Source: Burkholderiales bacterium (lineage in GTDB: Bacteria; Pseudomonadota; Gammaproteobacteria; Burkholderiales; SG8-39). From it: a DNA stretch of 64,000 nucleotides. Both the position numbers and the translations under genes were made by a program. Shown here one piece after another: positions 30,075 through 61,793 of this stretch (position 1 is its first letter; the number at the start of each line of letters is the position of its first letter). Below the pieces are notes generated by a model. That model was not told the origin of the DNA and ran no database searches. It worked only from the letters and a program-made list of their open reading frames with translations. Location: assembly GCA_035519135.1 (NCBI GenBank), contig DATIWX010000044.1:39270-103269 (forward strand), given 5' to 3'.

Positions 30075-30196
30075 TGGCAATCCACCCTAGTATCCAGCAC
30101 CCGAAATAGCCTCAGAATCAATTACTTTACCACCGTTCAGTCCCCTGTGGCTCGACCGTCCCCGCAACCCTGACAAGCGAAAATCACACCCGCCCG

Positions 30197-31267: not shown

Positions 31268-31312
31268 CGCCCGTTCCCCGCTCTCGGACAGTGCATCGCC
31301 CCGATCTCTTTC

Positions 31313-32080: not shown

Positions 32081-32096
32081 GGCTCGGCGTCCATCG

Positions 32097-34358: not shown

Positions 34359-34392
34359 GCTTCCTCCCTGCGGCAGGTCCCGGAGCCCGGGC

Positions 34393-35172: not shown

Positions 35173-35192
35173 AGCAGTATCCCTCTGCTCAA

Positions 35193-36017: not shown

Positions 36018-36034
36018 GGTCCCCAATTCGGATC

Positions 36035-38608
36035 TCAGAGGCTGATGTCGACCCCGGTGCCGGTCGCAGGCGCGCCGGCACCGCCAAAGGCGGCCCGCAA
36101 TTCGAAAGCGAATTCCTCCCCTGTCTGGTGCCGCTGGTCGGCATCCTTCGACATGGCCCTGTCGAGAAAGGCAACGAATCTCGGGGGGAGAGAGGGGTTG
36201 TACTGCAGGATGTCCGGCGCGTTCTCGTTGGCGATCTTGTACATGAGCTGCGCCATCGAGTCGCCTTCGAAGGGGAGCCTCCCGCAGGAGAGCTGGTACA
36301 GGCTCACGGCCAGGGAGAACAGGTCGCTGCGGCCGTCGATCTTCTTTCCTTGCAGCTGCTCGGGCGACATGTAGGACGGCGTCCCGAGCACCATGCCTGT
36401 CTTGGTCTTGGAGGAGTCGGTGATCCTGGCAATGCCGAAGTCGGTCACTTTGACCACGTCGCTTTCCGGCTCGTACATGATGTTCGCGGGCTTGACGTCG
36501 CGGTGCACGACGTTTTGCTTGTGCGCATACCCGAGCGCGTCGGCCACGCGGGCAATGATCGACACCACCTTGTCGATCGGGAGCAGGTTGCCCGGCTTGG
36601 TGAACGGCACGAGATCCTTGCCCTTCAGGAGCTCCATGGCGATATAGCACAGGTCGTGCTCCTCGCCCGCATCGTAGATGGTCACGATGTTGGTGTGGCT
36701 CAGGCGCCCCGCCGTCTCGGCCTCGCGGAAGAACCGCTCCTTGACCTCGGCCAGCTCGTCCGCTTCGAATTCCTGCGAAAGGGCCATGGTCTTGATCGCA
36801 ACCACCCGGCTGATCTTGGGGTCCCTGCCCTGGTACACGACGCCCATTGCACCCTTGCCGAGCTCCTTCTCCACCTGATAGCGCCCGAGCATCGGCTTCT
36901 CGGTCCCGCCGCCGAGCGCCAGCGTTCCGCCCGGATGGCTCTGCGTCCCGCCGAGAATGACCGTCTCCGACATCTGCTTGGCGCGCGAGAGCCTCGCCTC
37001 GAGATCCCGGAACTTCGGGTTGTGGCCGGCCATATAGCCGAACACCGCCTCGGCCTTGTTGAACTGGCGCTTGCGCTCGAAATCCAGGGCGAGGTTGTAG
37101 AGGTTGTCCATGACGGTGTCGTCGAGCGGCACCTTGCGGAAGTAGTCGAAGGCCATGTCGAGCTGGCCCTGGCCCTGGAACGCCAGGCCGAGCATGCGGG
37201 CGTTCGCGGCGGATTGCGCGTCCGAGACTTCCTTGCCGCGCTCCGTGACCATGAAGCGCTTCGTGACGAGAAGCACGTGCCCCACGACCAGAAGGGTCAG
37301 CGGCAACATGAACTGCAGCCACATCCCCTGGCCCGTCATCAGCACGAAGTGGGCGGCGAGCAGCACTGCCACGATGCCGGCGGTAACGCCCGCACCCAGC
37401 CCCGCCGAGAGACGCGGCAGCAGCGCAATCAGATAGGCCGCGACCAGCAGAAAGACCAGCCTTTCGACGATCCATCCCCAGGTCGGTACGACGAAGAAAT
37501 GCCCCTGCAGGAGCGAGGAGACCGTGTGCGCCAGAAGCTCGACGGATGCCGTGGCCGGACTCACCGGCGTGACGAAGATGCTGCCGACGCCGGCCGCGGT
37601 CGGGCCGATGAGCACGATCTTGTCGCGGTATTTCTCCGCGGGAATCTTGCCGCTGGCGACGTCGTAGAACGAGTCCTCCTGGATCGCCGGCTTGCCGTCG
37701 CGGTCCTTGTAGAAGTAGGTGAACATCTGCATCGTGGGATCGGCGCTCACCCTGAAATTGCCGATCTGCAGCGCTTCACCCGGACGGATCTGGATGTCCT
37801 TGGCGCTCAGGTTGAGGCTCTTCGCGACTAGCATTGCCGCCACGGACGGGTAGAACTCGTCGTAGTACGTGACCGCCAGCGCTTCGGTCCGGATCGCTCC
37901 GTCCACGTCGGGCACCGCATTGAGATGCCCCACGGCCGCCGCCGCCGCGCCTAGGCTGTCGACGACCGGGATTTCCACCCCGCTGGTCGATAGCGGCCTG
38001 TCGTCGCCGATCCCCTGGATTGCAAGCGCATTCTTGCGCACGAAGTCAGGAAGGGGTTTGTCGGGCTTGCCGCGCGGCTCGCCGAAAGTGAACAGCATCG
38101 GCAACACGACGTTGCCTGCCTTGGCGAAGCTGTCCGCCAGTTTCCGGTCGGTGTTCAGGGCTGCCTCCGCTTCCTGCAAGGTCGCACCCATTTCAACGAC
38201 GTCCGGTGACACCCCTCGGGGCGGCGAACTCGCGTCTGTGCCTGCCGGGACGATCCGGTGGTAGGTGTCCAGGAGGCGGTTGATGTAAGTCAGCCCCGGA
38301 TCGAGTTGCGGTTCGGAAAAAAACACCGTGTAGCCGATGACCTTTGCTTTCGCGCTCGCCAAACGCTCGATCATCTTCGCGTGAATCTCGCGCGACCAGG
38401 GCCAGCGGCCGATATTGTCGATGCTCTGCTTGTCGATCGCGATGATCGCGACCTTGTCGGACGGCGTTCGCGAGGAGGCCTTGACGCCCCAGTCGTAGGC
38501 GGCGCGCTCCAGGCCCTGAATCAGCTGGCCCCCCCCTACGAACAAGAGCACGAGCGACACCACCAGACCGAGAAACCAGTCTTTTTTCCAGAAGCCCGCT
38601 TTGGTCAT
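36035..38608 (-). CDS. CHASE2 membrane Hanks-type Ser/Thr kinase
   Basis: CHASE2 (AIDKQS..IGRWPWSR), TMs, GKGAMGVV, VAIK, HRDVKPAN, DFG, GTPSYMSPE. Confidence 0.94.
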   Translation of the reverse strand: MTKAGFWKKDWFLGLVVSLVLLFVGGGQLIQGLERAAYDWGVKASSRTPSDKVAIIAIDKQSIDNIGRWPWSREIHAKMIERLASAKAKVIGYTVFFSEPQLDPGLTYINRLLDTYHRIVPAGTDASSPPRGVSPDVVEMGATLQEAEAALNTDRKLADSFAKAGNVVLPMLFTFGEPRGKPDKPLPDFVRKNALAIQGIGDDRPLSTSGVEIPVVDSLGAAAAAVGHLNAVPDVDGAIRTEALAVTYYDEFYPSVAAMLVAKSLNLSAKDIQIRPGEALQIGNFRVSADPTMQMFTYFYKDRDGKPAIQEDSFYDVASGKIPAEKYRDKIVLIGPTAAGVGSIFVTPVSPATASVELLAHTVSSLLQGHFFVVPTWGWIVERLVFLLVAAYLIALLPRLSAGLGAGVTAGIVAVLLAAHFVLMTGQGMWLQFMLPLTLLVVGHVLLVTKRFMVTERGKEVSDAQSAANARMLGLAFQGQGQLDMAFDYFRKVPLDDTVMDNLYNLALDFERKRQFNKAEAVFGYMAGHNPKFRDLEARLSRAKQMSETVILGGTQSHPGGTLALGGGTEKPMLGRYQVEKELGKGAMGVVYQGRDPKISRVVAIKTMALSQEFEADELAEVKERFFREAETAGRLSHTNIVTIYDAGEEHDLCYIAMELLKGKDLVPFTKPGNLLPIDKVVSIIARVADALGYAHKQNVVHRDVKPANIMYEPESDVVKVTDFGIARITDSSKTKTGMVLGTPSYMSPEQLQGKKIDGRSDLFSLAVSLYQLSCGRLPFEGDSMAQLMYKIANENAPDILQYNPSLPPRFVAFLDRAMSKDADQRHQTGEEFAFELRAAFGGAGAPATGTGVDISL

Positions 38609-38897: not shown

Positions 38898-39830
38898 CTA
38901 GCTGCCTAGCAGGGTACCTACGGCAAGGCTGTTCTGGGCTACGAATTCCGCAGAGGAGACCTTCTTGCCTTCTTCATGCTTGGCCTTGAGCACCTCGATC
39001 CGCCCTCCCTGGGCGGTCACGAAGAAGCTGTGCGGGCCGACCTCCGAAATCTCGCCGATCTTGCCCTTGACCGCGCCGAAAGTGCGGATCAAGTGCTTGC
39101 GGCTGTCGAAAATCTGCACCTTCTTGCCGTTCAGCGTTGTCCAGGCCCCGGGAGCCGGGTTGCAGCCGCGTATCACGTTGTAGACGAAATCGACGTGGTT
39201 CGCCCAGTTGATCTTCGCCTCGGCGGCGCGGCACCAGCCTTCGTAGCTCGCCTGGCTCTCGTCCTGCACGGTTTCGCGATGCTTGCCCGCCACCACCAGG
39301 TCGGCCGCTTCCAGCATGGCCTTCACCCCCATCGGGAAGAGCCGGTCGAAATAGACGCTCCCGAGCGTGTCGTCGGCGCTGATCGGCGTCTCCTTTTGCA
39401 GGATTACCGGGCCTTCGTCGAGCCCGTCGTTCGGCCGGAAGATGGTCAGCCCGGTCTTGGTGTCGCCGCGGATGATGGGCCAGTTGATCGAGCTCGGACC
39501 CCGGTACTTGGGCAGCAGCGACGGATGGTACTGGATGGTGCCCTTCTTCGGGATCTTGACGAATTCCTGAGGGGCGAATTGCAGCACGAAAGCCATGATG
39601 CCTATTTCGGCATTGAGACCCCGCATCGCTGCTGCGGCTTCGGCGCTTTTCAGTGACGGAAACTGGAAGATCTTGACACCCTTCTCCTGGGCCGCGGTTT
39701 TCAACACATCGGCCTTCGCGCCTTCCTTCTCCGGCGCGCAGAAGACGCCCGCAACTTCGTCGCCGCGCGCGAGGAAGGCTTCGAGGACGGCTTTGCCGAA
39801 ATCCTGCTGTCCGATGATCGCGATCTTCAT
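38898..39830 (-). CDS. Formyltransferase-fold protein resembling the N-terminal domain of 10-formylTHF dehydrogenase
   Basis: MKIAIIGQQDFG, YHPSLLPKYRG, DGLDEGPVILQK, Fmt-like C domain; ATG 2 nt after frc stop. Confidence 0.85.
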   Translation of the reverse strand: MKIAIIGQQDFGKAVLEAFLARGDEVAGVFCAPEKEGAKADVLKTAAQEKGVKIFQFPSLKSAEAAAAMRGLNAEIGIMAFVLQFAPQEFVKIPKKGTIQYHPSLLPKYRGPSSINWPIIRGDTKTGLTIFRPNDGLDEGPVILQKETPISADDTLGSVYFDRLFPMGVKAMLEAADLVVAGKHRETVQDESQASYEGWCRAAEAKINWANHVDFVYNVIRGCNPAPGAWTTLNGKKVQIFDSRKHLIRTFGAVKGKIGEISEVGPHSFFVTAQGGRIEVLKAKHEEGKKVSSAEFVAQNSLAVGTLLGS

Positions 39831-39832
39831 GG

Positions 39833-41104
39833 TCACGCCGCTTTTTTCGGAGGGATCGAGAACGCGCCAGCTTGCTTGAGGCTCGCAACTTTCGCGTCGT
39901 CGTAGCCGAGAACCTGTCGCAAGACCTCGTCGGTGTGCTCGCCGAGCGTCGGCGAGCGCTTGATCACCGCGGGCGAAGCCGAAAGCTTGATAGGCATGCC
40001 GACGTTCCACCACTTGCCGCGCTGAGGGTGGTCGAGCTCGACCCACATGTCGCGGCCACGCACGTGCTCGTCGGTCGCCAGGTCCTCGGTGGACATGATC
40101 GGGCCGCAGGGAACGTCCAGGGGATTGAGGATCGCCATCAGCTCGCGCTTGGTGTACTTCTCGGCGAACTTGTTGATCAGCGTCCACATCAGGTTCTGGT
40201 TCTTGCGTCGGTCGCCGATCTTCGCGAAGCGCGGATCGGTCGCCATGTCGGGCATGCCGACGTCGGCTCCGATGCGCTTGGCGAGGTCTTCCCACACTGC
40301 CTCCTGCACCACGACATAGAGCCAGTCGTTGGCACCGTGGGGCTTGCAGTGGATGGCATTGCCGAGCTGGCCGCCGCCGGAATCGTTGCCGGCGCGCGGC
40401 ACATCGCCCATTCCCTTGTACGTAGGGACCGAATATTCGGAGAGATCGCCGCGCGCCAGGCGCTGATGGTCGCGGAACTTGACGCGGCAAAGGTTCATCA
40501 CGCCGTCCATCATGGCCACCTCGACGTATTGCCCCTGTCCGGTCTTCTCCGCATGGCGCAGCGCCGCGAGCAGGCCGATGGCCAGGTGCAGGCCGGTGCC
40601 CGAATCGCCGATCTGCGCGCCGGTGACGAACGGCGGGCCGTCAGGCACGCCCGTCGTGCTCATCGCGCCACCCATCGCCTGCGCCACGTTCTCGTAGGCC
40701 TTGAAATCGGAGTACGGCCCGCTCGAGCCGAAGCCCTTGATCGAGCCCATCACGATCTTCGGGTTGAGCTCGTGGATCTTCTCCCAGGTGAAGCCGAAGC
40801 GGTCGAGCACGCCGGGGCCGAAGTTCTCCATGATGATGTCGCACTTCTTCAGCAGGTCGACGAACACCTGCTTGCCCTCGGCCGACTTCATGTTCACGGT
40901 GATCGAGCGCTTGTTGCAGTTGAGCATCGTGAAATACAGCGAGTCGGCGTTCGGCACGTCGCGCAGCTGGCCGCGCGTCGCGTCGCCCTGCGGGTTCTCG
41001 AACTTGATCACGTCCGCGCCCATCCAGGCGAGCAGCTGCGAGCAGGTTGGACCTGCCTGGACGTGTGTCATGTCGAGAATTCGGACTCCTTTGAGCGCTT
41101 CCAT
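39833..41104 (-). CDS. frc: Formyl-CoA:oxalate CoA-transferase
   Basis: [43 protein letters not shown] glycine loop; follows oxc. Confidence 0.95.
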
Positions 41105-41113
41105 GGTCGAATC

Positions 41114-42865
41114 TTATTTCTTTTTCGCGGTGGGGTTCAGGCTCGTGATACGGCCGCTCTCGGTGCCGGCGGTCTCGTCGATCACGGCGTTGATGAGCGT
41201 CGGTTTCTTCGAGCGGATCGCGTCTTCGATCGCTTTCTTCAGCTCGGCCGGAGTGGTCGCGTTTACGCCCACGCCGCCGAAGGCCTCGATCAGCTTGTCG
41301 TAGCGCGCGCCCTTGACGAACACGGTGGGCGCCACGTCCGGGCCCCCGGTCGGATTGACGTCGGTGCCCTTGTAGACGCCGTTGTTGTTCATGACCACGA
41401 TGCACACCGGCAGGTTGTAGCGGCAGATGGTCTCGACTTCCATGCCCGAGAACCCGAAGGCGCTGTCGCCCTCGACCGCGATCACCTGCTGCTTGGTCAC
41501 CACCGCGGCGGCGACACAATAGCCCATGCCGATTCCCATGATGCCCCAGGTGCCAACGTCGATCCGCTTCCTCGGCTTGTACATGTCGACAATGCTGCGC
41601 GTGAAGTCGAGCGCGTTGGCGCCCTCGTTGACGAACATCGCATCCGGGTTGGCCTTGACGATGTCGCGCACCGCGTTCAGCGCGCTGTGGAAACTCATCG
41701 GCGAAGGGTTCTTCGCCAGCGTCTCGGCCATCTTGGCGACGTTCTTGGTCTTGCGCTCGTCGATGGCGTTCAGCCAGTCGGCGGATGGCTTGGGCCAGCT
41801 CGAGCCGATGCCGGACAGCAGCGCCGACACGCACGAGCCGATATCGCCCACCACCGGCGCGTCGATGCGCACGTTGCTGTCCGCCTCCTGCGGCGAGATG
41901 TCGACCTGGATGAACCTCTGGCCGCCCCAGTCCTTATGTCCCTTGCCGCCCCAGGTCTTGCCCTTGCCGTGCGACAGCAGCCAGTTCAGGCGCGCGCCGA
42001 TCAGCATCACCACGTCCGCCTCGGGGAGCACGAAGGAGCGGGCTGCCGACGCGCACTGCTCGTGCGTATCGGGCAGCAGGCCCTTCGCCATCGACATCGG
42101 CAGATAGGGAATTCCCGTCTTTTCAACCAGAGATCTGATTTCCGCGTCGGCCTGGGCATACGCCGCACCCTTGCCGAGAATGATCAGGGGCTTCTTCGCG
42201 CCTTTCAGCAGTTCGAGCGCGCGCTTCACGGCTTCCGGAGCCGGAATCTGGCGCGGCGCAGGGTCCACGACCTTGATCAGCGAATTCTTCCCGGCGGCGG
42301 CGTCGATGCTCTGTGCAAAAAGCTTGGCCGGCAGGTCAAGGTACACGCCGCCCGGACGACCCGACACGGCGGCGCGGATGGCGCGCGCGAGGCCCACGCC
42401 GATGTCCTCGGCGTGCAGCACGCGATAGGCGGCCTTGGCGACCGGCTTGGCGATCGCGAGCTGGTCCATCTCCTCGTAGTCGCCCTGCTGCAGGTCGACG
42501 ATCTCGCGCTCGCGCGAGCCGCTGATCAGGATCATCGGGAAGCAGTTGACCGTCGCGTGCGCGAGCGCGTTGAGGCCGTTGAGGAAGCCGGGCGCGGACA
42601 CGGTCAGGCAGATGCCGGGCTTCTGCGTCAGGAATCCGGCGATCGAGGCGGCATAACCCGCGCTCTGCTCGTGGCGGAAGGAAAGCACGCGCAGGCCCGC
42701 GGCCTGTGCGCGGCGGGTGAGGTCGGTGATCGGAATGCCGGGCAGGCCGTAGATGGTATCGAGGCCGTTCAGCTTGAGGGCATCGATGACCAGCTGAAAG
42801 CCGTCGGTCACTTGCTGTGCTTGCGCATCGGGACCGGACGCGACTTGCGGCTCGACTGTTCCCAT
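41114..42865 (-). CDS. oxc: Oxalyl-CoA decarboxylase
   Basis: [51 protein letters not shown] 42865 after AAGGAG. Confidence 0.96.
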
Positions 42866-42953: not shown

Positions 42954-42967
42954 TTGACTGTAGTCAA
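42954..42967. promoter_or_regulatory. Crp/Fnr-type box upstream of oxc and the regulator
   Basis: TTGAC-TGTA-GTCAA; minus-strand TAGACT at 42931-42926. Confidence 0.8.
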
Positions 42968-43000: not shown

Positions 43001-43621
43001 ATGCCGTCCTTGCCCGTGTCGGCCATCCTCAATCACCCGCAGCGCAACACGATCCGCCTGCAGCTCAAGCAGAACCTGATCCTGCGCGAAATGCCGGTGC
43101 CCGCCTGGGACGACCTCGAGCCGCAGCTGGAGGTCGCCGAGTACCGCAAGGGTGAGCCTCTGGTGAGGCAGGGCAGCACGAGCATGGAGCAGTTCTTCAT
43201 CCTGGACGGGATCCTCAAGCGCGTCGTCAGCAATCCCCAGGGCAAGGAGATGATCCTGCGCTTCGCGGCCGAAACCGACATGGACACGTCCTATGCCGCA
43301 TGGCGCATGAAGACCCCCATCCCCTACAGCATCGCGGCAGTCACGAAGGTGCGTGTTGCGCGCCTGTCCATGCCCCACTGGGTCGAGTTCCTCGAGCGCC
43401 ACGACGAAGTGAAACTCCGCTTCGAATACGAGGTGATGCGGCTCATGTCCGAAGTCATGGCGCACACCATCACGCTGCATCTGCTCGACGCCCCCGGGCG
43501 GCTCGCGCGCTTCATGCGCAAGCACCAGGACCTGCTCGGCCGCATTCCCAAGAAGGAACTGGCGTCCTATCTCAATCTCACGCCGGAGACCCTGTCGCGC
43601 CTACGGCAGCGCGTCGCTTAA
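43001..43621 (+). CDS. Crp/Fnr family transcriptional regulator
   Basis: cNMP-like beta-barrel; HTH ELASYLNLTPETLSR; no Cys residues, so no FNR-type Fe-S ligands. Confidence 0.92.
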   Translation: MPSLPVSAILNHPQRNTIRLQLKQNLILREMPVPAWDDLEPQLEVAEYRKGEPLVRQGSTSMEQFFILDGILKRVVSNPQGKEMILRFAAETDMDTSYAAWRMKTPIPYSIAAVTKVRVARLSMPHWVEFLERHDEVKLRFEYEVMRLMSEVMAHTITLHLLDAPGRLARFMRKHQDLLGRIPKKELASYLNLTPETLSRLRQRVA

Positions 43622-45135
43622 GCCGTCCGCTTCCCCTGCAGCGTGCGCAGCAGCGTCCTGATCAGAGGCCAGAAAAGCAGGAGCAGCGCGAGCGCGGTCA
43701 GGCCTCCAACGAGGCCGTTCGAGAAGAACACCATGAGATCGCCCTGCGAGCCCTTGATGGCGTTGCGGAAGTTCTCTTCCGCCCTGTCGCCCAGGACGAG
43801 CGCCAGCACCATGGGCGCCAGCGGATAGCCGAGCTTCTTGAAGGCGTAGCCGATCACGCCGAAGACGACCATCAGATAGACGTCGAACATCGAGTTGTGC
43901 ACGGTGTACGCGCCGATCGCGCAGATCACGATGATGACCGGCGCGATGATCGAAAACGGAATGCGCAGGATGGCGGCGAACAGCGGGACGCAGGTGAGCA
44001 CGACGATCAGCCCGGCAATATTCCCCAGATACATGCTGGCGATCAGGCCCCACACGAAATCCGGCTTCTCCACGAACAGCAGCGGCCCGGGCTGCAGGCC
44101 CCAGATGAGGAGGCCGCCGAGCAGCACCGCGGCGGTGGGCGAACCCGGCACGCCGAGCGTGATCATCGGCAGCAGCGCCGACGTCCCGGCGGCGTGCGCG
44201 GCAGTCTCCGGCGCCACCACGCCCTCGACCTTGCCGTTGCCGAAATCCCGCCCGTCCTTGGAGAGGCGCCGCGCGAGGCCGTAGCTCATGAACGACGCAG
44301 GCGTCGCCCCGCCCGGCACGATCCCCATGAAGCACCCTACCGCGGAGCTGCGCAAGGAAGTCGCCCAGTAACGCGGCAATTCTTTCCAGGTTTCCAATAC
44401 GACTTTCATGTTGATCTTGGCGTTCGCTCCCTTGAACGCCAGGCCTTCTTCCAGTGTCTCCAGAATCTCGCCGATGCCGAACAGGCCGATGACCGCGATC
44501 AGGAAATCGAACCCCTTGAGCAGCGAAGTAAAGCCGAAGGTGAGGCGCAACGTTCCGGTGACGCTGTCCAGGCCGACCGCCGCGAGGGCGAACCCTATCA
44601 TCATCGACGCGACGGTCTTCGCCGCGTTGCCGCCGCTCATCCCGACGAAGGCGCAGAAGGTGAGCAGATAGACCGCGAAGAACTCCGGCGGACCGAATTT
44701 CAGGGCGAATCCCGCAACGACTGGCGAGAGGAAGGTGATCATGATCACCGCGATCAGCGCCCCGACGAATGAGGAAGTGAACGCCGCGGTCAGGGCGCTG
44801 CCCGCTCGCCCCTGCTGGGCGAGCGGATGCCCGTCGAACGTGGTTGCCACCGACCAGGGCTCACCGGGGATATTGAAGAGAATCGAGGTGATGGCCCCGC
44901 CGAAAAGCGCACCCCAGTAGATGCAGGAGAGCAGGATGATCGCCGAGGTAGTGCCTCCGGGCTGCTGAGCCATCGAGAAAGTGAGCGGCAGCAGGATGGC
45001 AACACCGTTTGCGCCGCCCAGCCCGGGAAGCACGCCGATGATGATTCCCAGGATCACTCCGACGAACATCAGCACCAGGTTCAGCGGCGACAAAGCGACG
45101 CCGAACCCCCCCAGCAATGCATTGATTTCTTCCAC
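43618..45135 (-). CDS. Tripartite tricarboxylate transporter large permease (TctA family)
   Basis: GVLPGLG, ILFNIPGE, GVVAPETA, LGVPGS, WGLQPGP. Confidence 0.93.
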   Translation of the reverse strand: MEEINALLGGFGVALSPLNLVLMFVGVILGIIIGVLPGLGGANGVAILLPLTFSMAQQPGGTTSAIILLSCIYWGALFGGAITSILFNIPGEPWSVATTFDGHPLAQQGRAGSALTAAFTSSFVGALIAVIMITFLSPVVAGFALKFGPPEFFAVYLLTFCAFVGMSGGNAAKTVASMMIGFALAAVGLDSVTGTLRLTFGFTSLLKGFDFLIAVIGLFGIGEILETLEEGLAFKGANAKINMKVVLETWKELPRYWATSLRSSAVGCFMGIVPGGATPASFMSYGLARRLSKDGRDFGNGKVEGVVAPETAAHAAGTSALLPMITLGVPGSPTAAVLLGGLLIWGLQPGPLLFVEKPDFVWGLIASMYLGNIAGLIVVLTCVPLFAAILRIPFSIIAPVIIVICAIGAYTVHNSMFDVYLMVVFGVIGYAFKKLGYPLAPMVLALVLGDRAEENFRNAIKGSQGDLMVFFSNGLVGGLTALALLLLFWPLIRTLLRTLQGKRTA

Positions 45136-45181
45136 CCGATCTCCTATGCGCGGCGCGGCCCGCCCGCTCGCCCGTTCGCGT

Positions 45182-45685
45182 TCAACCCAAGCCCAGGGCT
45201 GCCTCCAGCGGCCCCTTGGGCAGGGGCACCTGGAACCACACCTCGAAGATCAGAAAGAAAACGACGCTCACGCCCACCGCGACCGGGACGATCTTGACCC
45301 AGGGGTACTTGCCCAGCTGCCACATGAAGTAGGCGATATACAGGGTCGACGCCAGGTAGAAGCCCAGATAGGCGATCAGGGAGACGTAGACGACGGTCGG
45401 AACGAGAACCGTGAGGATCTTTTTCAGCTCCTCGCGCGACACAAACGACTCGTCCGAAAGCGCCGCATTGCGCCAGCCGCGCAGCAGGATAGTCACGGCC
45501 GAAGCGCAGATCAGCAGTCCCACATACAAGGGAAAATAGCCGGGCTGGGGTCCGTCGTCCCCCCACCTCGCACCCAGCCGGTAGCTGTCGATCACCACCA
45601 CCAGGCCGAAAAGGAGAATGGCGGCGGCAACACCGATTTCCACGGCGCGTACCGACGCCGCCGAACGATCCGTCCCGTTATCCAC
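45182..45685 (-). CDS. Tripartite tricarboxylate transporter small permease (TctB family)
   Basis: GPQPGYFP, hydrophobic segments, VPLPKG; GTG 45685 after GAGGAGG. Confidence 0.88.
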   Translation of the reverse strand: MDNGTDRSAASVRAVEIGVAAAILLFGLVVVIDSYRLGARWGDDGPQPGYFPLYVGLLICASAVTILLRGWRNAALSDESFVSREELKKILTVLVPTVVYVSLIAYLGFYLASTLYIAYFMWQLGKYPWVKIVPVAVGVSVVFFLIFEVWFQVPLPKGPLEAALGLG

Positions 45686-45720
45686 GCCACCCGCCTCCTC
45701 GATCCGCCCGCCGGGCCCTC

Positions 45721-45746
45721 GGCGCGCGGGGAGTGCCCCGCGCGCC
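45721..45746. other. GC-rich hairpin after the TctC-like gene (likely mRNA stabiliser)
   Basis: GGCGCGCGGGG-AGTG-CCCCGCGCGCC perfect 11-bp stem, no U-tract. Confidence 0.55.
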
Positions 45747-45755
45747 CGCAAAAGC

Positions 45756-46769
45756 TCACCTCGCGAGGAATCCTGCCTCTTTCATGAGCAGGATGTGCCG
45801 CGCTTCCTCGCGCGCAACCCACGCTTCGTATTCCTTGCCGTTCAGGGTCGTCTGGTTGAACGCGCCCTGCTCGAGAAAATCCTTCCACTCGGGCGTATCC
45901 CGCACCTTCTTCAGAAGGTCCACGAAGTACTGCACCTGTTCAGGGGTCACGCCGCCCGGCATGAAGATTCCGCGCAGCATGACGTACTCGACGTCGAGCC
46001 CCGTCTCCTTGCAGGTCGGGATGTCGTACCAGGACATCGTCTTCGTGACCTTGGTCTTGTAGGGCATGCGCTTGGAATCGAACACGCACAGCGGCCGCAG
46101 GGTCCCCGCCCTCCACTGCGCCACCGCCTCGATCGGATTGTTCACCGTGGAGTCGATGTGCTTGCCGACGAGCTGCACCGCCACCTCGCCGCCGCCCCGG
46201 TAGGAGATATAGGTGAACTTGGCGCCGGTCTGCCGCTCGATCGCGACCGTGATGATCTGGTCCTCCTGCTTGGAGCCGGTGCCGCCCATCTTGAACTTGC
46301 CGCCCCCTGCCGTGACCGCGGCCACGTACTCCTTCGGGGTCTTGTAGGGCGTCTCCGCGTTCACCCAGAGGACGAAATTGTCGAGCGCCATCATCTGCAC
46401 CGGCGTCAGGTCGCGCCAATTGAAAGGCGTGTGCGTCGCGAGCGGCGTGGTGAACAGGTTCGACAGGGTGATGATCAGCTTGTGCGGGTCGCCTTTCGAC
46501 TCCTTGACGTCGAGGAAACCCTCGGCGCCCGCGCCGCCGGCCTTGTTGATGACGACCATGGGTTGCTTCATCAGCTTGTGCTTGGCAACGATGCCCTGGA
46601 TGAAGCGCGCCATCTGGTCGGCGCCGCCTCCGGTCCCCGCGGGAATGATGAATTCCACGGTCTTGCTCGGCTCCCAGGCCGCGAGGGCCGATTGCGGAGA
46701 GCCGACGGCCGCAAAAACGGCCAGGAATGGGGTGCTCCAACGCGAAAACTGCTTGATGTCGAACCGCAT
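45756..46769 (-). CDS. Tripartite tricarboxylate transporter substrate-binding protein (TctC/Bug family)
   Basis: Signal peptide, IPAGTGGGAD..AR, NKAGGAG, YRGGG, PTCKE.G. Confidence 0.92.
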   Translation of the reverse strand: MRFDIKQFSRWSTPFLAVFAAVGSPQSALAAWEPSKTVEFIIPAGTGGGADQMARFIQGIVAKHKLMKQPMVVINKAGGAGAEGFLDVKESKGDPHKLIITLSNLFTTPLATHTPFNWRDLTPVQMMALDNFVLWVNAETPYKTPKEYVAAVTAGGGKFKMGGTGSKQEDQIITVAIERQTGAKFTYISYRGGGEVAVQLVGKHIDSTVNNPIEAVAQWRAGTLRPLCVFDSKRMPYKTKVTKTMSWYDIPTCKETGLDVEYVMLRGIFMPGGVTPEQVQYFVDLLKKVRDTPEWKDFLEQGAFNQTTLNGKEYEAWVAREEARHILLMKEAGFLAR

Positions 46770-46852: not shown

Positions 46853-46866
46853 TTGACTGGAATCAA
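46853..46866. promoter_or_regulatory. Crp/Fnr-type box upstream of TctC-like gene
   Basis: TTGAC-TGGA-ATCAA; minus-strand TATAAT at 46831-46826. Confidence 0.8.
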
Positions 46867-46889: not shown

Positions 46890-47588
46890 CTAGTCCTCCT
46901 TCTTTTCGGGCTTGGAGCGCCCGGCAAGCCATTTCCCAACGACGACCACCAGCGCCGCGCCTACCGCGGGCGCAACATAGTAGCTCTCCAGCCACGGCAG
47001 GTTCGCGTTGACCCAGGCTGAAATCGCCGGATCCGTCACCGCCATCTCTCCCGCGGTCCAGCCGAGAATGGCGGCGCCGAGCGTAATGATAACCGGCCAG
47101 CGCTCCATAAGCTTCATCAGCATGGTCGCGCCGTAGACGACGAGCGGAATGCTGATGATGAGGCCGAGCACGAGCAGCGTGATGCTGCCCTTGGCCGCCG
47201 CGGCAACGGCGATGACGTTGTCGGTGCTCATGACCAGGTCCGCGATCAGGATGGTCTTGATCGCACCGATGAGGTGCGAGCTCGATTGCACCTCGCCGTC
47301 CCCGTCTTCCTCGGGTATCAGCAGCTTCACCGCGATCCACAGCAGCGCCGCCCCTCCCGCGAGCTTGAGGTATGGGAACTCGAGCAGCTTCACCGCGACG
47401 ACCGTGAGGACGATGCGCAGCACCACCGCGGCCCCGGCGCCCCAGAATATCGCCTGCTTTTGCTGCCTCGGCGGCAGCGAGCGCGCCGCGAGGGCGATCA
47501 CCACGGCATTGTCGCCCGACAGGATGATGTTCACCCAGATGATCGTCCCCAGCCCCAGCCAGAACTGGGTCGTCAGCAGCTGCTCCAT
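46890..47588 (-). CDS. TerC/YjbE family membrane protein
   Basis: LSGDNAVVIALA, ADLVMSTDNVIAVA. Confidence 0.92.
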   Translation of the reverse strand: MEQLLTTQFWLGLGTIIWVNIILSGDNAVVIALAARSLPPRQQKQAIFWGAGAAVVLRIVLTVVAVKLLEFPYLKLAGGAALLWIAVKLLIPEEDGDGEVQSSSHLIGAIKTILIADLVMSTDNVIAVAAAAKGSITLLVLGLIISIPLVVYGATMLMKLMERWPVIITLGAAILGWTAGEMAVTDPAISAWVNANLPWLESYYVAPAVGAALVVVVGKWLAGRSKPEKKED

Positions 47589-47616: not shown

Positions 47617-49287
47617 TCAGAACAGGCCGACGACTTTTCCTTCCACCAGGTCGATCTTCACCGCCGAAGGCACCTTGGGCAGGCCGGGCATGGTCATGAT
47701 GTCGCCGCAGATCATCACGATGAACTCGGCGCCCGCCGCGAGGCGCACCTCGCGGACGTTGATCACGTGATCCACCGGGGCGGCCCGCAATTGAGGATCG
47801 GTCGAGAACGAGTACTGGGTCTTTGCGACGCACACCGGGTAGTGTCCGTAGCCCTCCTCTTGCAGCTTCTTGATCTGGTTGCGCACCTTGGCGTCCGCGG
47901 TGACTTCGGAGGCGCGGTAAATGCGCTGCGCGATCGCGCTGATCTTCTCCCATAGCGAATCGTTTTCGCCGTACACGAAATGGAAACTGTTCTTGGTTTC
48001 GCACAACCCCACGACGATACGCGCGAGCTCCGCCGCACCCTTGCCGCCGTCGCTCCAGTGGGTGGCAATCACCGCCGGGACGCCGAGCTTCGCCATTCTC
48101 GCCTTGATGAAGTCGTGCTCACGCGGCGTATCGTAGGTGAACCGGTTGATCGACACGACGCAGGGGATGCCGTAGTGCTTGCTCACGTTCTCCACGTGCC
48201 GCTCGAGGTTGACGATGCCCCGCTCCAGCGCGGCTATGTTCTCCTGATTCACCGTCTTCAGGTCCGCGCCTCCATGGTATTTCAGCGCCCGCACCGTGCC
48301 GACAATGACCGCCGCGCTCGGCTGCAGTCCGGATTTGCGGCACTTGATGTCGACGAACTTCTCGGCACCGAGGTCGGCGCCGAAGCCCGCTTCGGTCACC
48401 ACATAGTCGACGAGTTTCATCGCGGACTTCGTGGCGATCACGGAATTGCAGCCGTGCGCGATGTTGGCGAACGGACCGCCGTGAATGAAAGCCGGGTTGT
48501 TCTCGAGCGTCTGCACAAGATTCGGCTTGATCGCGTCCTTGAGCAGCACCGTCATGGCGCCGTGAGCCTGCAGGTCCCGCGCGAGCACCGGCTTCTGGTC
48601 GCGCGTGTAGGCGACGACGATCTTGCCGAGGCGTTCCTTCAGGTCCTCGAGCGAGTTCGACAGGCAGAAGATCGCCATGACTTCGGAGGCGACGACGATG
48701 TCGAATCCGTCCTGGCGCGGATAGCCGTTCCCCGGCCCGCCGAGGCTCACGGTGATGTCGCGCAGGGCGCGATCGTTCATGTCGACGACGCGCCTCCAGG
48801 CGATGCGGCGCACGTCGATCCCCAGCTCGTTTCCGTGATGGATGTGGTTGTCGAGCATCGCCGCGAGCAGGTTGTTCGCGAGCGCGATGGCGTTGAAGTC
48901 GCCGGTGAAATGCAGGTTGATGTCTTCCATCGGCACCACCTGGGCGTAGCCGCCCCCGGCAGCGCCCCCCTTCATGCCGAACACCGGCCCGAGCGAGGGT
49001 TCGCGCAGGCAGATCATCGCTTTCTTGCCGATGTGGTTGAGCGCGTCGCCAAGACCGACGGTCGTCGTGGTCTTGCCCTCGCCCGCCGGCGTGGGCGTCA
49101 TTGCCGTGACGAGAATGAGCTTTGCGTTCGGCCGTTGCTTCAGGCCGTCGAGATATTCGAGCGCCACCTTCGCCTTGTAGTGGCCGTAGGGCTCTAGGTG
49201 CTCCTCGGGAATGCCGAGCTTCGCCAGCGCGATCTTGGAGATGCGTTCGAGTCTGGCTTTCTGCGCGATTTCGATGTCGGAGGGCAT
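47617..49287 (-). CDS. fhs: Formate--tetrahydrofolate ligase
   Basis: [47 protein letters not shown]. Confidence 0.98.
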
Positions 49288-49363: not shown

Positions 49364-49377
49364 TTGACGGAGGTCAA
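49364..49377. promoter_or_regulatory. Crp/Fnr-type box upstream of fhs
   Basis: TTGAC-GGAG-GTCAA; minus-strand TATAGT at 49340-49335. Confidence 0.8.
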
Positions 49378-52755: not shown

Positions 52756-55563
52756 TCAGCGCCGGAGCTCCGCCAGCGCCTGTCCGCCCCCGAAGCTCGA
52801 GTGCACCGGCGTCGGACCGCCCTTGGTGACTTTCACCGCGCAATATTTGAACTCCGGGATCTTGCCGAACGGGTCGAGCTTCGGGTTGGTGAGCATGTTC
52901 GCCGCCGCCTCGTAGTAGCAGAACGGGATGAACAGGGCGCCGACCGGCGTGCCTTCGTCCGCGCGCGCGTATAGCGCGATTTTCCCGCGGCGCGATTCGA
53001 CGGTGACGATCTCGCCCGCTTTCACCCCGAACCTGGCGAGGTCGGCCGGATGGAGCGACGCGACCGGCTCGGGCTCGATGTGATCGAGCACGGTGGCGCG
53101 GCGCGTCATCGAGCCGGTGTGCCAATGCTCGAGCTGGCGGCCGGTGATGAGCACCATCGGGTATTCGTCGTCCGGCCGTTCATCGGCCGAGATCAGGTCT
53201 GCGGGAACGAACTTGCCGCGGCCGGTGGTCGTCGGGAAGTGCGTCGTGAATACCACGGGCTCGCCGGGGTCGCCTTCTTTCTCGCACGGGTAGGTCACCG
53301 AGGAATCGCGCTCGAGGCGCTCCCAGGTGATGCCCGCGATCGAGTCCATGCACTGGCGCATCTCGTTGAACACGTCGCGCGGGTGCGCGTAGTTCCAGGA
53401 AAGACCGATGCGCCTGGCCAGCTCGTTGAGGAGCCAGAAGTCTTCCTTCGCCTCCCCCGGGGGCTCGATTGCCTTTCTTCCGAGCTGCACCATGCGATCG
53501 GTGTTGGTCACCGTGCCGACCTTCTCCGGCCAGGCGGTCGCGGGCAGCACCACGTCGGCGAGATACGCCGTTTCCGTGAGGAAGATGTCCTGCACCACCA
53601 TGTGATCGAGGGAAGCGAGCGCCTCGCGCGCGTGGTCGACGTCGGGGTCGGACATCGCCGGGTTCTCGCCCATGATGTACATGCCGCGGATCTCGCGCTT
53701 CTTCGCCGCGTTGATGGTCTCGACCACGGTGAGTCCGGGCTTGGGGTCGAGCTCCATGCCCCAGAGCTTCTCGAAGCGCGCCTTGGCCTCGGGCGTGGCG
53801 ACTCGCTGGTAGTCGGGATAGAACATCGGGATCAGGCCTGAGTCGGAGGCGCCCTGCACGTTGTTCTGGCCGCGCAGGGGATGCAGGCCCGAGCCGGGCT
53901 TGCCGATCTGGCCGGTCGAGAGCGCCAGTGCGATCAGGCAGCGCGCGTTGTCTGTGCCGTGCACGTGCTGCGAGATGCCCATGCCCCACATGATCATCGA
54001 GCCCTTGGAGGTCGCGTACAGGCGCGCGACTTCGCGGATGGTCTTCGCGTCGATGCCGCAGATGGGCGCCATTGCCTCGGGGGAGAACTTCTTCACGTTC
54101 TCGGCCAGGGCCTCGTAACCCGAGGTGCGGTCGCGGATGAAGGCCTCGTTCACGAGCCCTTCCTCGACGATGGTGTGCAGCATCGCGTTCAGCAGAGCGA
54201 CGTCCGTGTCGGCCTTGAACTGCAGGCAGTAGGTCGCGTGGCGCGCGAGCTCGCCGCGGCGCGGGTCGGCGACGATCAGCTTCACGCCGGCCTTGGCGGC
54301 GTTCTTCATCCAGGTCGCCGCGACGGGGTGGTTCACCGTGGGGTTGGCCCCGATCAGGAAGATCACCTCCGCCTTCATCACGTCGCGCACCTGGTTCGAC
54401 ACCGCGCCCGAGTTGATGCCTTCCATCAGCGCCGCGACCGACGAGGCGTGGCACAGGCGCGTGCAGTGATCGACGTTGTTCGACCCGAAGCCGGTGCGCA
54501 CCAGCTTCTGGAAGAGATAGGCTTCCTCGTTCGTGCCCTTCGCCGAGCCGAATCCGGCCAGCGCCTTCTTCCCGTGGGTGTCGCGGATGTCGCGAAGGCC
54601 CTTGGCGGCGAAGTCGAGCGCCTCTTCCCAGCTCGCCTCGCGGAAAACCTGCGACCAGTTGTCCGGGTCGACGACGAAGTTCTTGTGCTTTTTCACGCCC
54701 GGCTTGCGGATGAGCGGCCGGGTGAGCCGGTGCCTGTGCTGCACGTAGTCGAAGCCGTAGCGTCCCTTCACGCACAGGCGGCTGGAGTTGGCGGGGCCTT
54801 CCCTGCCCTGGACCCACAGAATCTTGTTGCCCTTGACGTTGTAGGTGAGCAGGCAGCCCACGCCGCAGTAGGGGCACACCGAGTCCACGGTCTTGTCGGC
54901 CTGCACCTTGCCGACGTCCCGGGCCGGCATCAGGGCGCCCGTCGGGCAGGCCTGCACGCATTCGCCGCACGCGACGCAGGTCGAGTTGCCCATGGGGTCG
55001 TCGAGGTCGAAGACGATCTTGGAGTGCTCGCCGCGGAAAGCGTAGCCGATGACGTCGTTCACCTGTTCCTCGCGGCAGGCCCTGAGGCAGCGCGTGCACT
55101 GTATGCACGCATCCAGGTTGACCGCGATCGCCGAGTGCGACAGGTCGGGCTTCGGCTGATGCCGCGACTCGAAGCGCGGCTTGCCGACTTTCAGCTCCTT
55201 CGCCCAGTGATCGAGCTCGGAATCGAGCGTGTAGGACTTCTCCGGAATATCCGCGAGCAGGAGCTCGAGCACCATTTTCTGGCTGGTGAGGGCTCGCGCG
55301 CTGTCGGTGGTGACCTCCATCCCGTCCTTGGGGGTGCGGCAGCACGAGGGGGCGAGCACGCGCTCGCCCTTGATCTCGACCACGCAGGCGCGGCAGTTGC
55401 CGTCCGGCCGCATGCCTTCCTTGTAGCAAAGGTGAGGAATCTCGATGCCGTAGTGCTTGGCGGTCTCGATGATGGTTTCGTCCGAGCGGCCGACCACCGC
55501 TTTGCCGTTGAGCTTGAACTCAACCGGCATCGTCGCCGCCTGCGCGGTGCTTATACGATCCAT
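52756..55563 (-). CDS. Formate dehydrogenase alpha subunit (Mo/W-bisPGD, Cys ligand)
   Basis: N-terminal 2Fe-2S/4Fe-4S motifs, CPYCGVGC, CTRLCH, LRGQNNVQG, GKIPEFK. Confidence 0.95.
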   Translation of the reverse strand: MDRISTAQAATMPVEFKLNGKAVVGRSDETIIETAKHYGIEIPHLCYKEGMRPDGNCRACVVEIKGERVLAPSCCRTPKDGMEVTTDSARALTSQKMVLELLLADIPEKSYTLDSELDHWAKELKVGKPRFESRHQPKPDLSHSAIAVNLDACIQCTRCLRACREEQVNDVIGYAFRGEHSKIVFDLDDPMGNSTCVACGECVQACPTGALMPARDVGKVQADKTVDSVCPYCGVGCLLTYNVKGNKILWVQGREGPANSSRLCVKGRYGFDYVQHRHRLTRPLIRKPGVKKHKNFVVDPDNWSQVFREASWEEALDFAAKGLRDIRDTHGKKALAGFGSAKGTNEEAYLFQKLVRTGFGSNNVDHCTRLCHASSVAALMEGINSGAVSNQVRDVMKAEVIFLIGANPTVNHPVAATWMKNAAKAGVKLIVADPRRGELARHATYCLQFKADTDVALLNAMLHTIVEEGLVNEAFIRDRTSGYEALAENVKKFSPEAMAPICGIDAKTIREVARLYATSKGSMIMWGMGISQHVHGTDNARCLIALALSTGQIGKPGSGLHPLRGQNNVQGASDSGLIPMFYPDYQRVATPEAKARFEKLWGMELDPKPGLTVVETINAAKKREIRGMYIMGENPAMSDPDVDHAREALASLDHMVVQDIFLTETAYLADVVLPATAWPEKVGTVTNTDRMVQLGRKAIEPPGEAKEDFWLLNELARRIGLSWNYAHPRDVFNEMRQCMDSIAGITWERLERDSSVTYPCEKEGDPGEPVVFTTHFPTTTGRGKFVPADLISADERPDDEYPMVLITGRQLEHWHTGSMTRRATVLDHIEPEPVASLHPADLARFGVKAGEIVTVESRRGKIALYARADEGTPVGALFIPFCYYEAAANMLTNPKLDPFGKIPEFKYCAVKVTKGGPTPVHSSFGGGQALAELRR

Positions 55564-55578
55564 TGTTCACCTCGCTCC

Positions 55579-55676
55579 AAAACCGGGGACAGACCACCAT
55601 TTTCCGGCTCGACCGGGGGCTCGACCGGGCGCTGGTGCCCGTCAGCAGAAGAAAATGGTGGTCTGTCCCCGGTTTT
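55579..55676. repeat. Perfect 26-bp inverted repeat (REP/MITE-like) between FDH subunit genes
   Basis: AAAACCGGGGACAGACCACCATTTTC (55579-604) and exact reverse complement (55651-676); spacer holds 2x GGCTCGACCGGG. Confidence 0.9.
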
Positions 55677-57382
55677 CATTCGATCTCGTTCGGGAAATAT
55701 TTCATCACGGAAAGCACGGGGTTGGGTGCCGCCTGACCCAAGCCGCATATGGATGCGTCCATCATCGCCTGGGAAAGTTCCTTCAGCAGCGGCTGGTCCC
55801 ACTTCTTCCCGTCGATCAGCTTGAGCGTCTTCGCCGTGCCCACGCGGCAGGGCGTGCACTGGCCGCAGGACTCCTCGGAGAAAAATCTCGTCAGGTTGCG
55901 CGCCGCGGCAGTCGCGCGGTCCTTGTCCGAAAGGATCACCACCGCGGCCGAGCCGATGAAGCAGCCGTACTGGTTGAGCGTGTCGAAATCGAGCGGGATG
56001 TCCGACATCGAGGCGGGCAGGATGCCGCCCGAGGCGCCGCCGGGCAGGTAGCCGTAGAAAGCGTGGCCGTCCTGCATCCCGCCGCAGTACTCGGCGATCA
56101 GCTCCTTCACCGTGATCCCGGCGGGCGCGAGATGCACACCGGGCTTCTTGACGCGGCCGCTCACCGAGAACGAGCGCAGCCCCTTGCGGCCGTTGCGCCC
56201 CTGGGACGCGAACCAGTCGGCGCCGCGCTCGAGGATCTCGCGCACCCAATGCAGCGTTTCCATGTTGTGCTCGAGCGTCGGCCGGCCGAACAGGCCCACC
56301 TGGGCGACGTAGGGCGGGCGCAGGCGCGGCATGCCGCGCCTGCCTTCGATCGACTCGATCATCGCCGATTCCTCGCCGCAGATGTAGGCGCCCGCTCCGC
56401 GCCGCAGGTAGATGGGCGGCAGCTTGCACGGCGGATCGGCCTGCAGCGCCGCGATCTCCTTCTCGAGGATCGCACGGCAGCCGTGGTATTCGTCGCGCAG
56501 GTAGATGTAGATTTCGCCTATCCCGACCGCCCAGGCGGCGATCAGTGCGCCCTCGATGAAGCGGTGCGGGTCGCGCTCCAGGTACCAGCGGTCCTTGAAG
56601 GTACCCGGCTCGCCTTCGTCGATGTTGATCGCCATCAGCCGGGGCGCGTGCTCGGCGGCGACGGACTTCCATTTGCGCCCCGCCGGGAATCCCGCGCCTC
56701 CCAGGCCGCGCAGGCCCGAGTTCTCCATCACGGCGATCACGTCTTCGCGCTTCTTCTCGCCCTCGGCGCAGGCCTTCGCGAGCGCGTAGCCGCCTTTGGC
56801 GCGGTAGCCTGCGTAGTCGATGTAGGCTTGCGCAGGATGCTTCACCGCCCTGGCCTTCACCAGCGCGGCGATCTTCTCGGCGCTCGCGTGCATGACAGGA
56901 TTCTGCCCGACGACCGCGGCGGGCGCCGTCTCGCAGCGGCCGATGCAGGGCGCGTGCAGGACGCGGACGTCCTTGCCCAGAATCCCCGGGAGCCTCGCGA
57001 GCAGCTCCTGCGACCCCGCCATCTCGCAGGCGATCGAGTCGCACACCCTGACCGTGATCGCGGGCGGCGCCGCGTCACCCTCTTTCACCACGTCGAAGTG
57101 GTGATAGAAAGTCGCGACCTCGTAGACCTCGGTCATCGCAACCTTCATCTCGTCGGCAAGGGCGACCAAGTGCGCCGCCGACAGGTGGCCGTGGCGATCC
57201 TGGATGCGGTGCAGATACTCGATCAGCAGGTCGCGCCGGCGCGCGCTTTCTCCAAAATGCTCCTGCAGCAGCGCGCGGACTTCCTCGCGCGCCTTGGGAT
57301 CGACCCCGCGGCCCTTGGGCGTGCCGCGCACCCGCGCGCGTTCTGGATCCTGCTGCGGTTTCGTCGGTGCCGGGCCGTTCAT
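55676..57382 (-). CDS. NAD-linked formate dehydrogenase beta subunit (NuoE-NuoF fusion)
   Basis: EVATFY, CDSIAC, CIGRC; GLRGLGGAGFP, DEGEPGTFKDR, YICGEE, SCGQCTPCR, ICGLG. Confidence 0.93.
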   Translation of the reverse strand: MNGPAPTKPQQDPERARVRGTPKGRGVDPKAREEVRALLQEHFGESARRRDLLIEYLHRIQDRHGHLSAAHLVALADEMKVAMTEVYEVATFYHHFDVVKEGDAAPPAITVRVCDSIACEMAGSQELLARLPGILGKDVRVLHAPCIGRCETAPAAVVGQNPVMHASAEKIAALVKARAVKHPAQAYIDYAGYRAKGGYALAKACAEGEKKREDVIAVMENSGLRGLGGAGFPAGRKWKSVAAEHAPRLMAINIDEGEPGTFKDRWYLERDPHRFIEGALIAAWAVGIGEIYIYLRDEYHGCRAILEKEIAALQADPPCKLPPIYLRRGAGAYICGEESAMIESIEGRRGMPRLRPPYVAQVGLFGRPTLEHNMETLHWVREILERGADWFASQGRNGRKGLRSFSVSGRVKKPGVHLAPAGITVKELIAEYCGGMQDGHAFYGYLPGGASGGILPASMSDIPLDFDTLNQYGCFIGSAAVVILSDKDRATAAARNLTRFFSEESCGQCTPCRVGTAKTLKLIDGKKWDQPLLKELSQAMMDASICGLGQAAPNPVLSVMKYFPNEIE

Positions 57383-57417: not shown

Positions 57418-57431
57418 TTGACACGAGTCAA
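57418..57431. promoter_or_regulatory. Crp/Fnr-type box upstream of FDH operon
   Basis: TTGAC-ACGA-GTCAA; minus-strand TAAAAT at 57394-57389. Confidence 0.8.
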
Positions 57432-59676: not shown

Positions 59677-61724
<2,048 letters not shown>

Positions 61725-61779: not shown

Positions 61780-61793
61780 TTGACCCGCGTCAA
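61780..61793. promoter_or_regulatory. Crp/Fnr-type box upstream of sucC
   Basis: TTGAC-CCGC-GTCAA; only a weak -10 candidate (GATGAT) at equivalent spacing. Confidence 0.7.

Follow-up and report, generated by a model that had tools for sequence, protein, structure and literature searches.

A stand-alone bacterial relative of the ALDH1L1 N-terminal domain encoded beside oxc and frc, a candidate CoA/folate formyltransferase

The oxc-frc locus and the identity of its formyltransferase

In the 64-kb window studied here (the whole analysed stretch of 64,000 nucleotides from contig DATIWX010000044.1 of a Burkholderiales bacterium), the gene for oxalyl-coenzyme A (CoA) decarboxylase (oxc) and that for formyl-CoA transferase (frc) are followed by a third gene, which encodes a formyltransferase (FT). 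All three are read from the minus strand in the order oxc-frc-FT, and the gaps of 9 nt (oxc/frc) and 2 nt (frc/FT) match the spacing given in an original prediction made from the letters of this DNA. That prediction likened FT to the N-terminal domain (N-domain) of 10-formyltetrahydrofolate (10-formyl-THF) dehydrogenase (FDH, or ALDH1L1) and not to methionyl-tRNA formyltransferase (Fmt). It proposed that FT may pass formyl-CoA's formyl group directly to tetrahydrofolate (THF), or work in reverse.

38898..39830, minus strand: FT, stand-alone ALDH1L-N-like formyltransferase, 310 aa (sequence, family, tree)
39833..41104, minus strand: frc, formyl-CoA transferase (TIGR03253, 569.3 bits; cut-off 504.2)
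41114..42865, minus strand: oxc, oxalyl-CoA decarboxylase (TIGR03254, 975.7 bits; cut-off 739.4)

The FT protein begins with MKIAIIGQQDFG, carries QYHPSLLP at residues 100-107 and DGLD at residues 135-138, and consists of two Pfam domains only, Formyl_trans_N and Formyl_trans_C. It scores 160.7 bits against the Fmt model TIGR00460, under the cut-off of 201.5, and likewise does not reach the cut-offs for PurU (TIGR00655, 22 bits against 286), PurN (TIGR00639, 47.2 against 150) or ArnA (NF005998, 121.8 against 777). Its best sequence matches in the PDB are six entries of the ALDH1L1/FDH N-domain with 197-206 bits, while Fmt reaches 129 bits. The aligned N-domain shows MKIAVIGQSLFG and IIYHPSLLP, and the motifs GQxxF, YHPSLLP, Y..LFP.G and IRG..P.PGAW are common to FT and ALDH1L. 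The hallmarks of Fmt are missing from FT: GQQDF stands in place of GTPxF and Q-Y-H in place of Asn-x-His, both of which are present in the Fmt rows of the alignment, and APEKEGAKAD replaces the PDRPxGRG loop, which in Fmt has a role in tRNA handling. The contrast that the prediction drew between Fmt and the ALDH1L1 N-domain agrees with both the alignment and the PDB matches.

Residues F85, H102, S104, R110, D138 and Y196 of FT correspond to F89, H106, S108, R114, D142 and Y200 of FDH, six residues named as its active site in PMC4388273. The catalytic His and Ser are kept in 62 of 62 aligned rows, and the Asp in 61 of them. In a 27-row tree, in which ArnA and PurN form long branches, the FT clade (98/96) and the ALDH1L clade (100/100) are sisters with support of 100/99, and an approximately unbiased (AU) test on the same rows rejected the grouping of FT with Fmt (p-AU 0.002, LG+G4). 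A quick tree of 78 rows, from which 13 redundant or apparently frameshifted rows had been left out, again recovered FT (97), ALDH1L (100) and Fmt plus ArnA (99); its backbone is open, and in it there was no support for a nesting of ALDH1L within FT. The AlphaFold model of FT (pLDDT 95.8) aligned in Foldseek with TM scores of 0.84-0.87 to FDH and 0.87-0.93 to Fmt, the best match listed being an FDH N-domain.

The source assembly (89.9% complete) has three PF00551 genes, which encode PurN, FT and the Fmt of a def-fmt pair located elsewhere in the genome (291.4 bits against TIGR00460); PurU was not found in it. The FT family is large: in a search for homologues, all 8000 of the 8000 candidates scored passed E 0.001, a set that may include Fmt. 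The top 120 are 85-96% identical to FT, and those that are named carry the label methionyl-tRNA formyltransferase. The automatic annotation as fmt had been foreseen in the prediction, which also named a separate def-fmt locus as a point to check. As judged from family scores, motifs and phylogeny, FT is a bacterial family distinct from Fmt and sister to the ALDH1L N-domain, in keeping with the original assignment.

Three stand-alone relatives of 283-345 aa (P0294, P0298 and P0349) are nearer to ALDH1L (99) than FT is. Another protein, P0174 (688 aa, eight members), has a C-terminal FT behind a membrane/hexapeptide-like region and nests among FT rows of the Hyphomicrobiaceae type.

Linkage of FT to frc and fhs, and the surrounding gene cluster

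In a phylum sample of 401 genomes, whose members are related and hence not independent, FT occurs in 10 genomes and Frc in 31. All 10 FT genomes are Frc-positive (10 of 31, as opposed to none of the 370 others), and the linkage of FT to Frc is far beyond chance. We also compared 80 close loci and 80 distant ones, the latter from a clade whose seed was a homologue with 42% identity to FT. The adjacent upstream gene of FT is frc in 76 of the close loci (two of the rest are too short, two have another gene), and frc adjoins FT in 71 of the distant ones (seven are too short). In a family of 81 genomes (f75), it lies within 600 nt of FT in 20 of 20 fetched loci. By comparison, oxc may relocate or give way to other thiamine diphosphate (ThDP) enzymes, while FT remains beside frc. 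Among 42 FT genomes, 32 of which were picked from the close loci, eight have no TIGR03254 match; in five of these a different ThDP enzyme is encoded next to frc or FT, and one has a split oxc. We also sought genomes that have frc-FT-fhs without a producer of formyl-CoA, and five of the five checked carry oxc elsewhere.

The gene for formate-tetrahydrofolate ligase (fhs) is the other recurrent companion. It is found in 36 of the 42 FT genomes, as opposed to 7 of 21 comparison genomes that have Frc and lack FT, and it lies directly downstream of FT in 55 of the 80 distant loci; an annotated plasmid operon reads oxc-frc-'fmt_2'-fhs. A search of longer proteins revealed 36 protein clusters of 878-898 aa in which FT and Fhs are fused through variable Pro/Lys/Ala/Ser linkers. 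Their members come from many assemblies, some labelled Hyphomicrobiaceae; a 37th record (P0123) was removed as a read-through. FT is present in 46 genomes of family f75 and an unbroken FT-Fhs fusion in eight, and the seven fusions that were fetched all lie in operons of the form oxc-frc-[FT::fhs]. In the window itself, fhs is situated 4.7 kb upstream of oxc within one cluster. FT and Fhs look like partners in series, and the idea that FT bypasses the ATP-dependent Fhs in the source genome is not supported in view of these fusions and adjacencies, the co-occurrence of the two genes, and an fhs that shares both the cluster and, as described below, a palindromic box with oxc.

The other features of the cluster are as follows.

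42954..42967: Crp/Fnr-type palindrome TTGAC-N4-GTCAA, in the spacer that separates oxc from the divergent regulator
43001..43621, plus strand: divergent Crp/Fnr-family regulator (cyclic-nucleotide-binding domain and weak helix-turn-helix)
43618..46769, minus strand: tctCBA, tripartite tricarboxylate transporter (PF03401, PF07331, PF01970)
46853..46866: palindromic box, 83 nt before tctC
46890..47588, minus strand: TerC/YjbE-family membrane protein (TIGR03717)
47617..49287, minus strand: fhs, formate-tetrahydrofolate ligase (NF010030, 903 bits; cut-off 652)
49364..49377: palindromic box, 76 nt before fhs
52756..57382, minus strand: NAD-linked formate dehydrogenase, alpha and beta (homologue identity, Pfam of homologues)
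57418..57431: palindromic box, 35 nt before the formate dehydrogenase beta gene (fdhB)
59677..61724, minus strand: sucCD, succinyl-CoA synthetase (homology)
61780..61793: palindromic box, 55 nt before sucC

Both fhs and sucC are the only copies found in the assembly, the formate dehydrogenase subunits are 70-71% identical to those of another oxalate cluster, and TctCBA may be the oxalate importer. The Crp/Fnr-type regulator was matched in 50 of the 80 close loci. The palindrome TTGAY-N4-RTCAA occurs five times in the window, each time 35-88 nt before oxc, tctC, fhs, fdhB or sucC. It is present in 41 of 41 spacers between the regulator and oxc/frc in relatives (shuffle mean 0.12). Twenty further regions were compared: the box stands no more than 300 nt from fhs in 12 of them, from fdhB in 9 of 12 and from sucC in 5 of 11, the overall rate being 0.029 per 300 nt; seven of the remaining eight fhs genes lie behind a boxed fdh or suc unit. 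The five boxes may delineate an oxalate/formate regulon. As the whole genome has 59 such sites, a global Fnr-type protein, rather than the adjacent regulator, may read the box. A promoter and terminator scan gave no signal above the chance level, and in the RNA runs checked for expression at most 0.11 of the words were present, which gives no evidence of expression.

Several neighbouring and variant genes merit a brief record. Beyond FT (27708-38608) follow genes for a CHASE2 Ser/Thr kinase, a PP2C-like phosphatase, an FHA protein, a CHASE2 cyclase-like protein and a pilus-type ATPase; the kinase was matched in 52 of the 80 close loci, which is probably inherited synteny. Two kinds of ThDP enzyme resembling PRK05858/2-hydroxyacyl-CoA lyase occupy the Oxc slot before frc in several loci (L066:4931-6640, L070, L151:12203-13924, L315 and L320-L323), and these are likely non-orthologous oxalyl-CoA decarboxylases. 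In one genome (G188; L149:9401-12618) of a family in which FT is common, fhs follows frc directly without FT between them, possibly a recent loss. FT-less Burkholderiales clusters (L135, L136, L138, L139 and L140) have a gene of the FAA-hydrolase family near or right after frc. A family annotated as ketopantoate reductase and lacking an NCBIfam match (L103:20532-21581) is present in 22 of the 80 distant FT loci, has two homologues of 54-55% identity in the source genome (C28, C14), and possibly represents an alternative oxalyl-CoA reductase. Apparent Frc-FT fusions of 550-770 aa were discounted: P0124 and the similar long proteins P0122 and P0141 have frameshift-like N-termini.

Proposed function and rival explanations

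The FDH N-domain offers the closest view of what FT might do. In FDH, a thiol (4'-phosphopantetheine or mercaptoethanol) attacks the formyl group (PMC4388273), and ALDH1L1 passes it from folate to the phosphopantetheine thiol (PMC8748788, PMC4388273), its natural acceptor. FT resembles the ALDH1L1/2 N-domain (PDB 1s3i, 2bw0, 4qpd) in identity (30-38%), in its sister position, in the six active-site residues and in lacking the Asn before the His; unlike it, FT is a stand-alone bacterial protein without a carrier or aldehyde dehydrogenase domain and is tied to frc and fhs. A simple carrier-protein pattern, which may miss divergent carriers, matched short open reading frames in none of 191 loci, so that free CoA would be the pantetheine thiol at hand. 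Two precedents exist for such chemistry. LctF of the lactacystin cluster, a stand-alone Fmt-like protein, has been shown in vitro to transfer formyl from 10-formyl-THF to CoA, yielding formyl-CoA (PMC11730586), which is the reaction considered here; LctF provides a polyketide synthase/non-ribosomal peptide synthetase starter unit in Streptomyces. The N-domain of HypX (PDB 6j0p, 6j1f) has a related fold and generates formyl-CoA internally, again in the direction from folate to CoA (PMC6802093, PMC12134894). It is distant from FT (E about 3e-8, 18-20% identity), its CoA is enzyme-bound, and a second domain decarbonylates the formyl-CoA; FT has no such C-terminal enoyl-CoA-hydratase-like domain. 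Given the thiol transfer by ALDH1L1, neighbours that handle formyl-CoA and 10-formyl-THF, and the precedent of LctF and HypX, FT is most simply read as a CoA/folate formyltransferase, and we regard this activity as probable. The part of the original prediction that placed FT in formyl-CoA metabolism, probably as a CoA-THF transferase, is supported; as to direction, the reverse run that it gave as an alternative is slightly preferred. If FT is a transferase, net flow from folate to CoA appears to us the somewhat better supported direction.

With a good deal more reserve, we propose that FT is a reversible 10-formyl-THF:CoA formyltransferase that acts in series with Fhs and Frc and tops up the pool of formyl-CoA and oxalyl-CoA during oxalate breakdown. 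Fhs, identified by family assignment, would convert formate, THF and ATP into 10-formyl-THF; FT would transfer the formyl to the thiol of CoA by means of the observed residues His102, Ser104 and Asp138; and Frc, likewise identified by family, would hand the CoA to oxalate and return formate. The sum would be oxalate + CoA + ATP -> oxalyl-CoA + ADP + Pi, in which folate and formate act catalytically and the net cost is one ATP per oxalate activated. Calculated with the figures of PMC8085960, such an ADP-forming oxalate-CoA ligase is favourable by about 11 +/- 7 kJ/mol. Since the Frc/Oxc cycle conserves its own thioester, it requires priming and topping up; priming enzymes have been described, as has a formyl-CoA half-life of 1.9 h in quenched mixtures (PMC3720670). 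The proposed route would prime the cycle and make good the thioester that is consumed when formyl-CoA hydrolyses and when oxalyl-CoA is reduced for biosynthesis, and a reversible FT may serve both this mode and the transfer from formyl-CoA to folate. The same role is filled in a single step and without folate by unrelated enzymes, the acetyl-CoA:oxalate CoA-transferase YfdE/UctC and the oxalate-CoA ligases of the AAE3/Oxs type.

The distribution of other potential activators is consistent with this proposal. A stand-alone oxalate-CoA ligase was found in none of the 42 FT genomes (one has a 43% match in a 909-aa frame) and in 4 of the 21 Frc-positive genomes lacking FT. A cluster-linked ADP-forming acyl-CoA ligase occurs in 2 of the 42 as opposed to 9 of the 21, three further 35-37% matches with stops having been left out. 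This latter protein (L152:14050-16191, L143-L146) has about 710 aa, is 79-80% identical over three genera within oxc-frc clusters, is a candidate oxalate-CoA ligase and is, to our knowledge, uncharacterised so far. Separately, five genomes of one genus (L268-L272) have an oxalate-CoA-ligase-like domain (47-48%) in open frames of 1089-2169 aa.

A number of observations weigh against the proposal. The FT step alone runs uphill from the folate amide to the thioester by roughly 10-15 kJ/mol. The ligase contrast derives from three genera, 8 of the 21 FT-less genomes have neither activator, and one genome (G238) has FT and the ADP-forming ligase together in one cluster. Four complete FT genomes have no Fhs, and those four keep PurU. 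In the protist Namystynia karyoxenos (P0173, EukProt), a single transcript-derived cluster of 920 aa joins FT to an Oxc-like ThDP enzyme (NF006721, 587 bits; cut-off 557), that is, to a producer of formyl-CoA. The box also precedes sucCD, SucC occurs in 29 of the 80 distant loci, and the priming could instead come from succinyl-CoA. Of the 42 FT genomes, 32 have PanE2-like genes, which would allow a glyoxylate route with surplus formyl-CoA. Finally, the fold is common to Fmt, ArnA and FDH, so that structure does not separate FT from Fmt.

Much of this would fit the same enzyme working with the opposite net flow, in which the formyl-CoA made by Oxc is passed to THF and feeds purine and serine one-carbon metabolism without Fhs. 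Where Fhs is coupled, ATP would be gained by Fhs in reverse, oxalate being activated from succinyl-CoA, or the CoA ester coming free of charge from glyoxylate oxidation. Transfer from thioester to amide is downhill, a bypass role is plausible in the four Fhs-less genomes, and the plasmid cluster oxc-frc-FT-fhs lies beside glyA, hprA and ppc. Frc accepts succinate (PMC8085960), and the route from glyoxylate through oxalyl-CoA to formyl-CoA, with its surplus thioester, works in Cupriavidus necator (PMC7486775). The original prediction saw in this direction a way to conserve thioester energy; the stoichiometry of the pathway says otherwise, because every formyl-CoA that goes to folate takes away a thioester with which Frc would activate the next oxalate; this thioester must then be replaced, and no ATP is saved on oxalate. 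Fusion and adjacency to Fhs likewise contradict a bypass of this enzyme. Reverse Fhs is at +5 kJ/mol and is reported for ATP synthesis in one clostridium only (PMC8085960), the assayed homologues run from folate to thiol, and the 89.9%-complete source assembly gave no match for ppc or malyl-CoA lyase, so that a serine cycle was not found. We consider these opposite-flow scenarios, taken together, rather unlikely, though a serious competitor.

A hydrolytic FT, which would deformylate 10-formyl-THF in the manner of PurU or cleave formyl-CoA as a thioesterase, with release of formate and recycling of the carrier, strikes us as improbable. The isolated FDH N-domain does hydrolyse 10-formyl-THF (PMC4388273), five FT-less clusters have a gene of the FAA-hydrolase family behind frc, and PurU was found neither in the 36 FT genomes with Fhs nor in the source genome. 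However, PurU is also absent from 5 of the 7 FT-less genomes with Fhs and is kept in the four Fhs-less FT genomes. Its absence tracks Fhs rather than FT, and we dropped it as a sign that FT replaces PurU. A deformylase fused to Fhs would constitute an ATP-burning futile cycle, and it would have no reason to sit behind frc. Even less probable is another formyl acceptor, be it initiator Met-tRNA for a second Fmt, a carrier protein whose gene lies elsewhere, or a small amine. FT shares with Fmt the two-domain fold including its C-terminal domain, the His/Asp pair, the folate site, 28-34% identity and the database label, and its model fits Fmt structures as well as those of FDH. It differs from Fmt in score, motifs, gene context and phylogeny, where the AU test rejects their union; the genome has its own true def-fmt, and the negative carrier scan, from which divergent carriers may escape, speaks against a carrier protein.

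Significance for oxalate and one-carbon metabolism

Our literature search, whose coverage left most subscription journals outside, found no paper on the FT family, the FT-Fhs fusion or the box, and the available part of a 2024 review of oxalotrophy (PMC13409138) does not mention such a formyltransferase step. Formyl-CoA/folate chemistry as such is already known from LctF (described in 2025) and HypX; what is new is a central-metabolic family with new partners. In its most complete form, which we put forward still more tentatively than the topping-up proposal, FT and Fhs, split in the organism studied here and one polypeptide in Hyphomicrobiaceae, would form a folate-catalysed, ADP-forming formate-CoA ligase. 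By this natural, dedicated route formate would become formyl-CoA for a single ATP; the route would determine how much thioester the oxalate cycle contains and could run in reverse to yield ATP. The family would be the sister of the ALDH1L1 N-domain among bacteria and would belong, with oxc, frc, formate dehydrogenase and sucCD, to a Crp/Fnr-type regulon not described before. Published routes from formate to formyl-CoA convert ATP to AMP and PPi (PMC10170137), and formyl-CoA energetics are treated in PMC11961710 and PMC10170137. For engineering, Fhs and FT would cost one ATP if the proposal is true, and the natural fusions offer a one-protein test case. The FT family also points to the origin of the ALDH1L1 N-domain. 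Should the proposed function be true, FT would supply a missing step in bacterial oxalate and one-carbon metabolism that links the activated formyl pool on folate with that on CoA in bacteria abundant in soils, fresh waters and the sea, and thousands of fmt annotations would be corrected.

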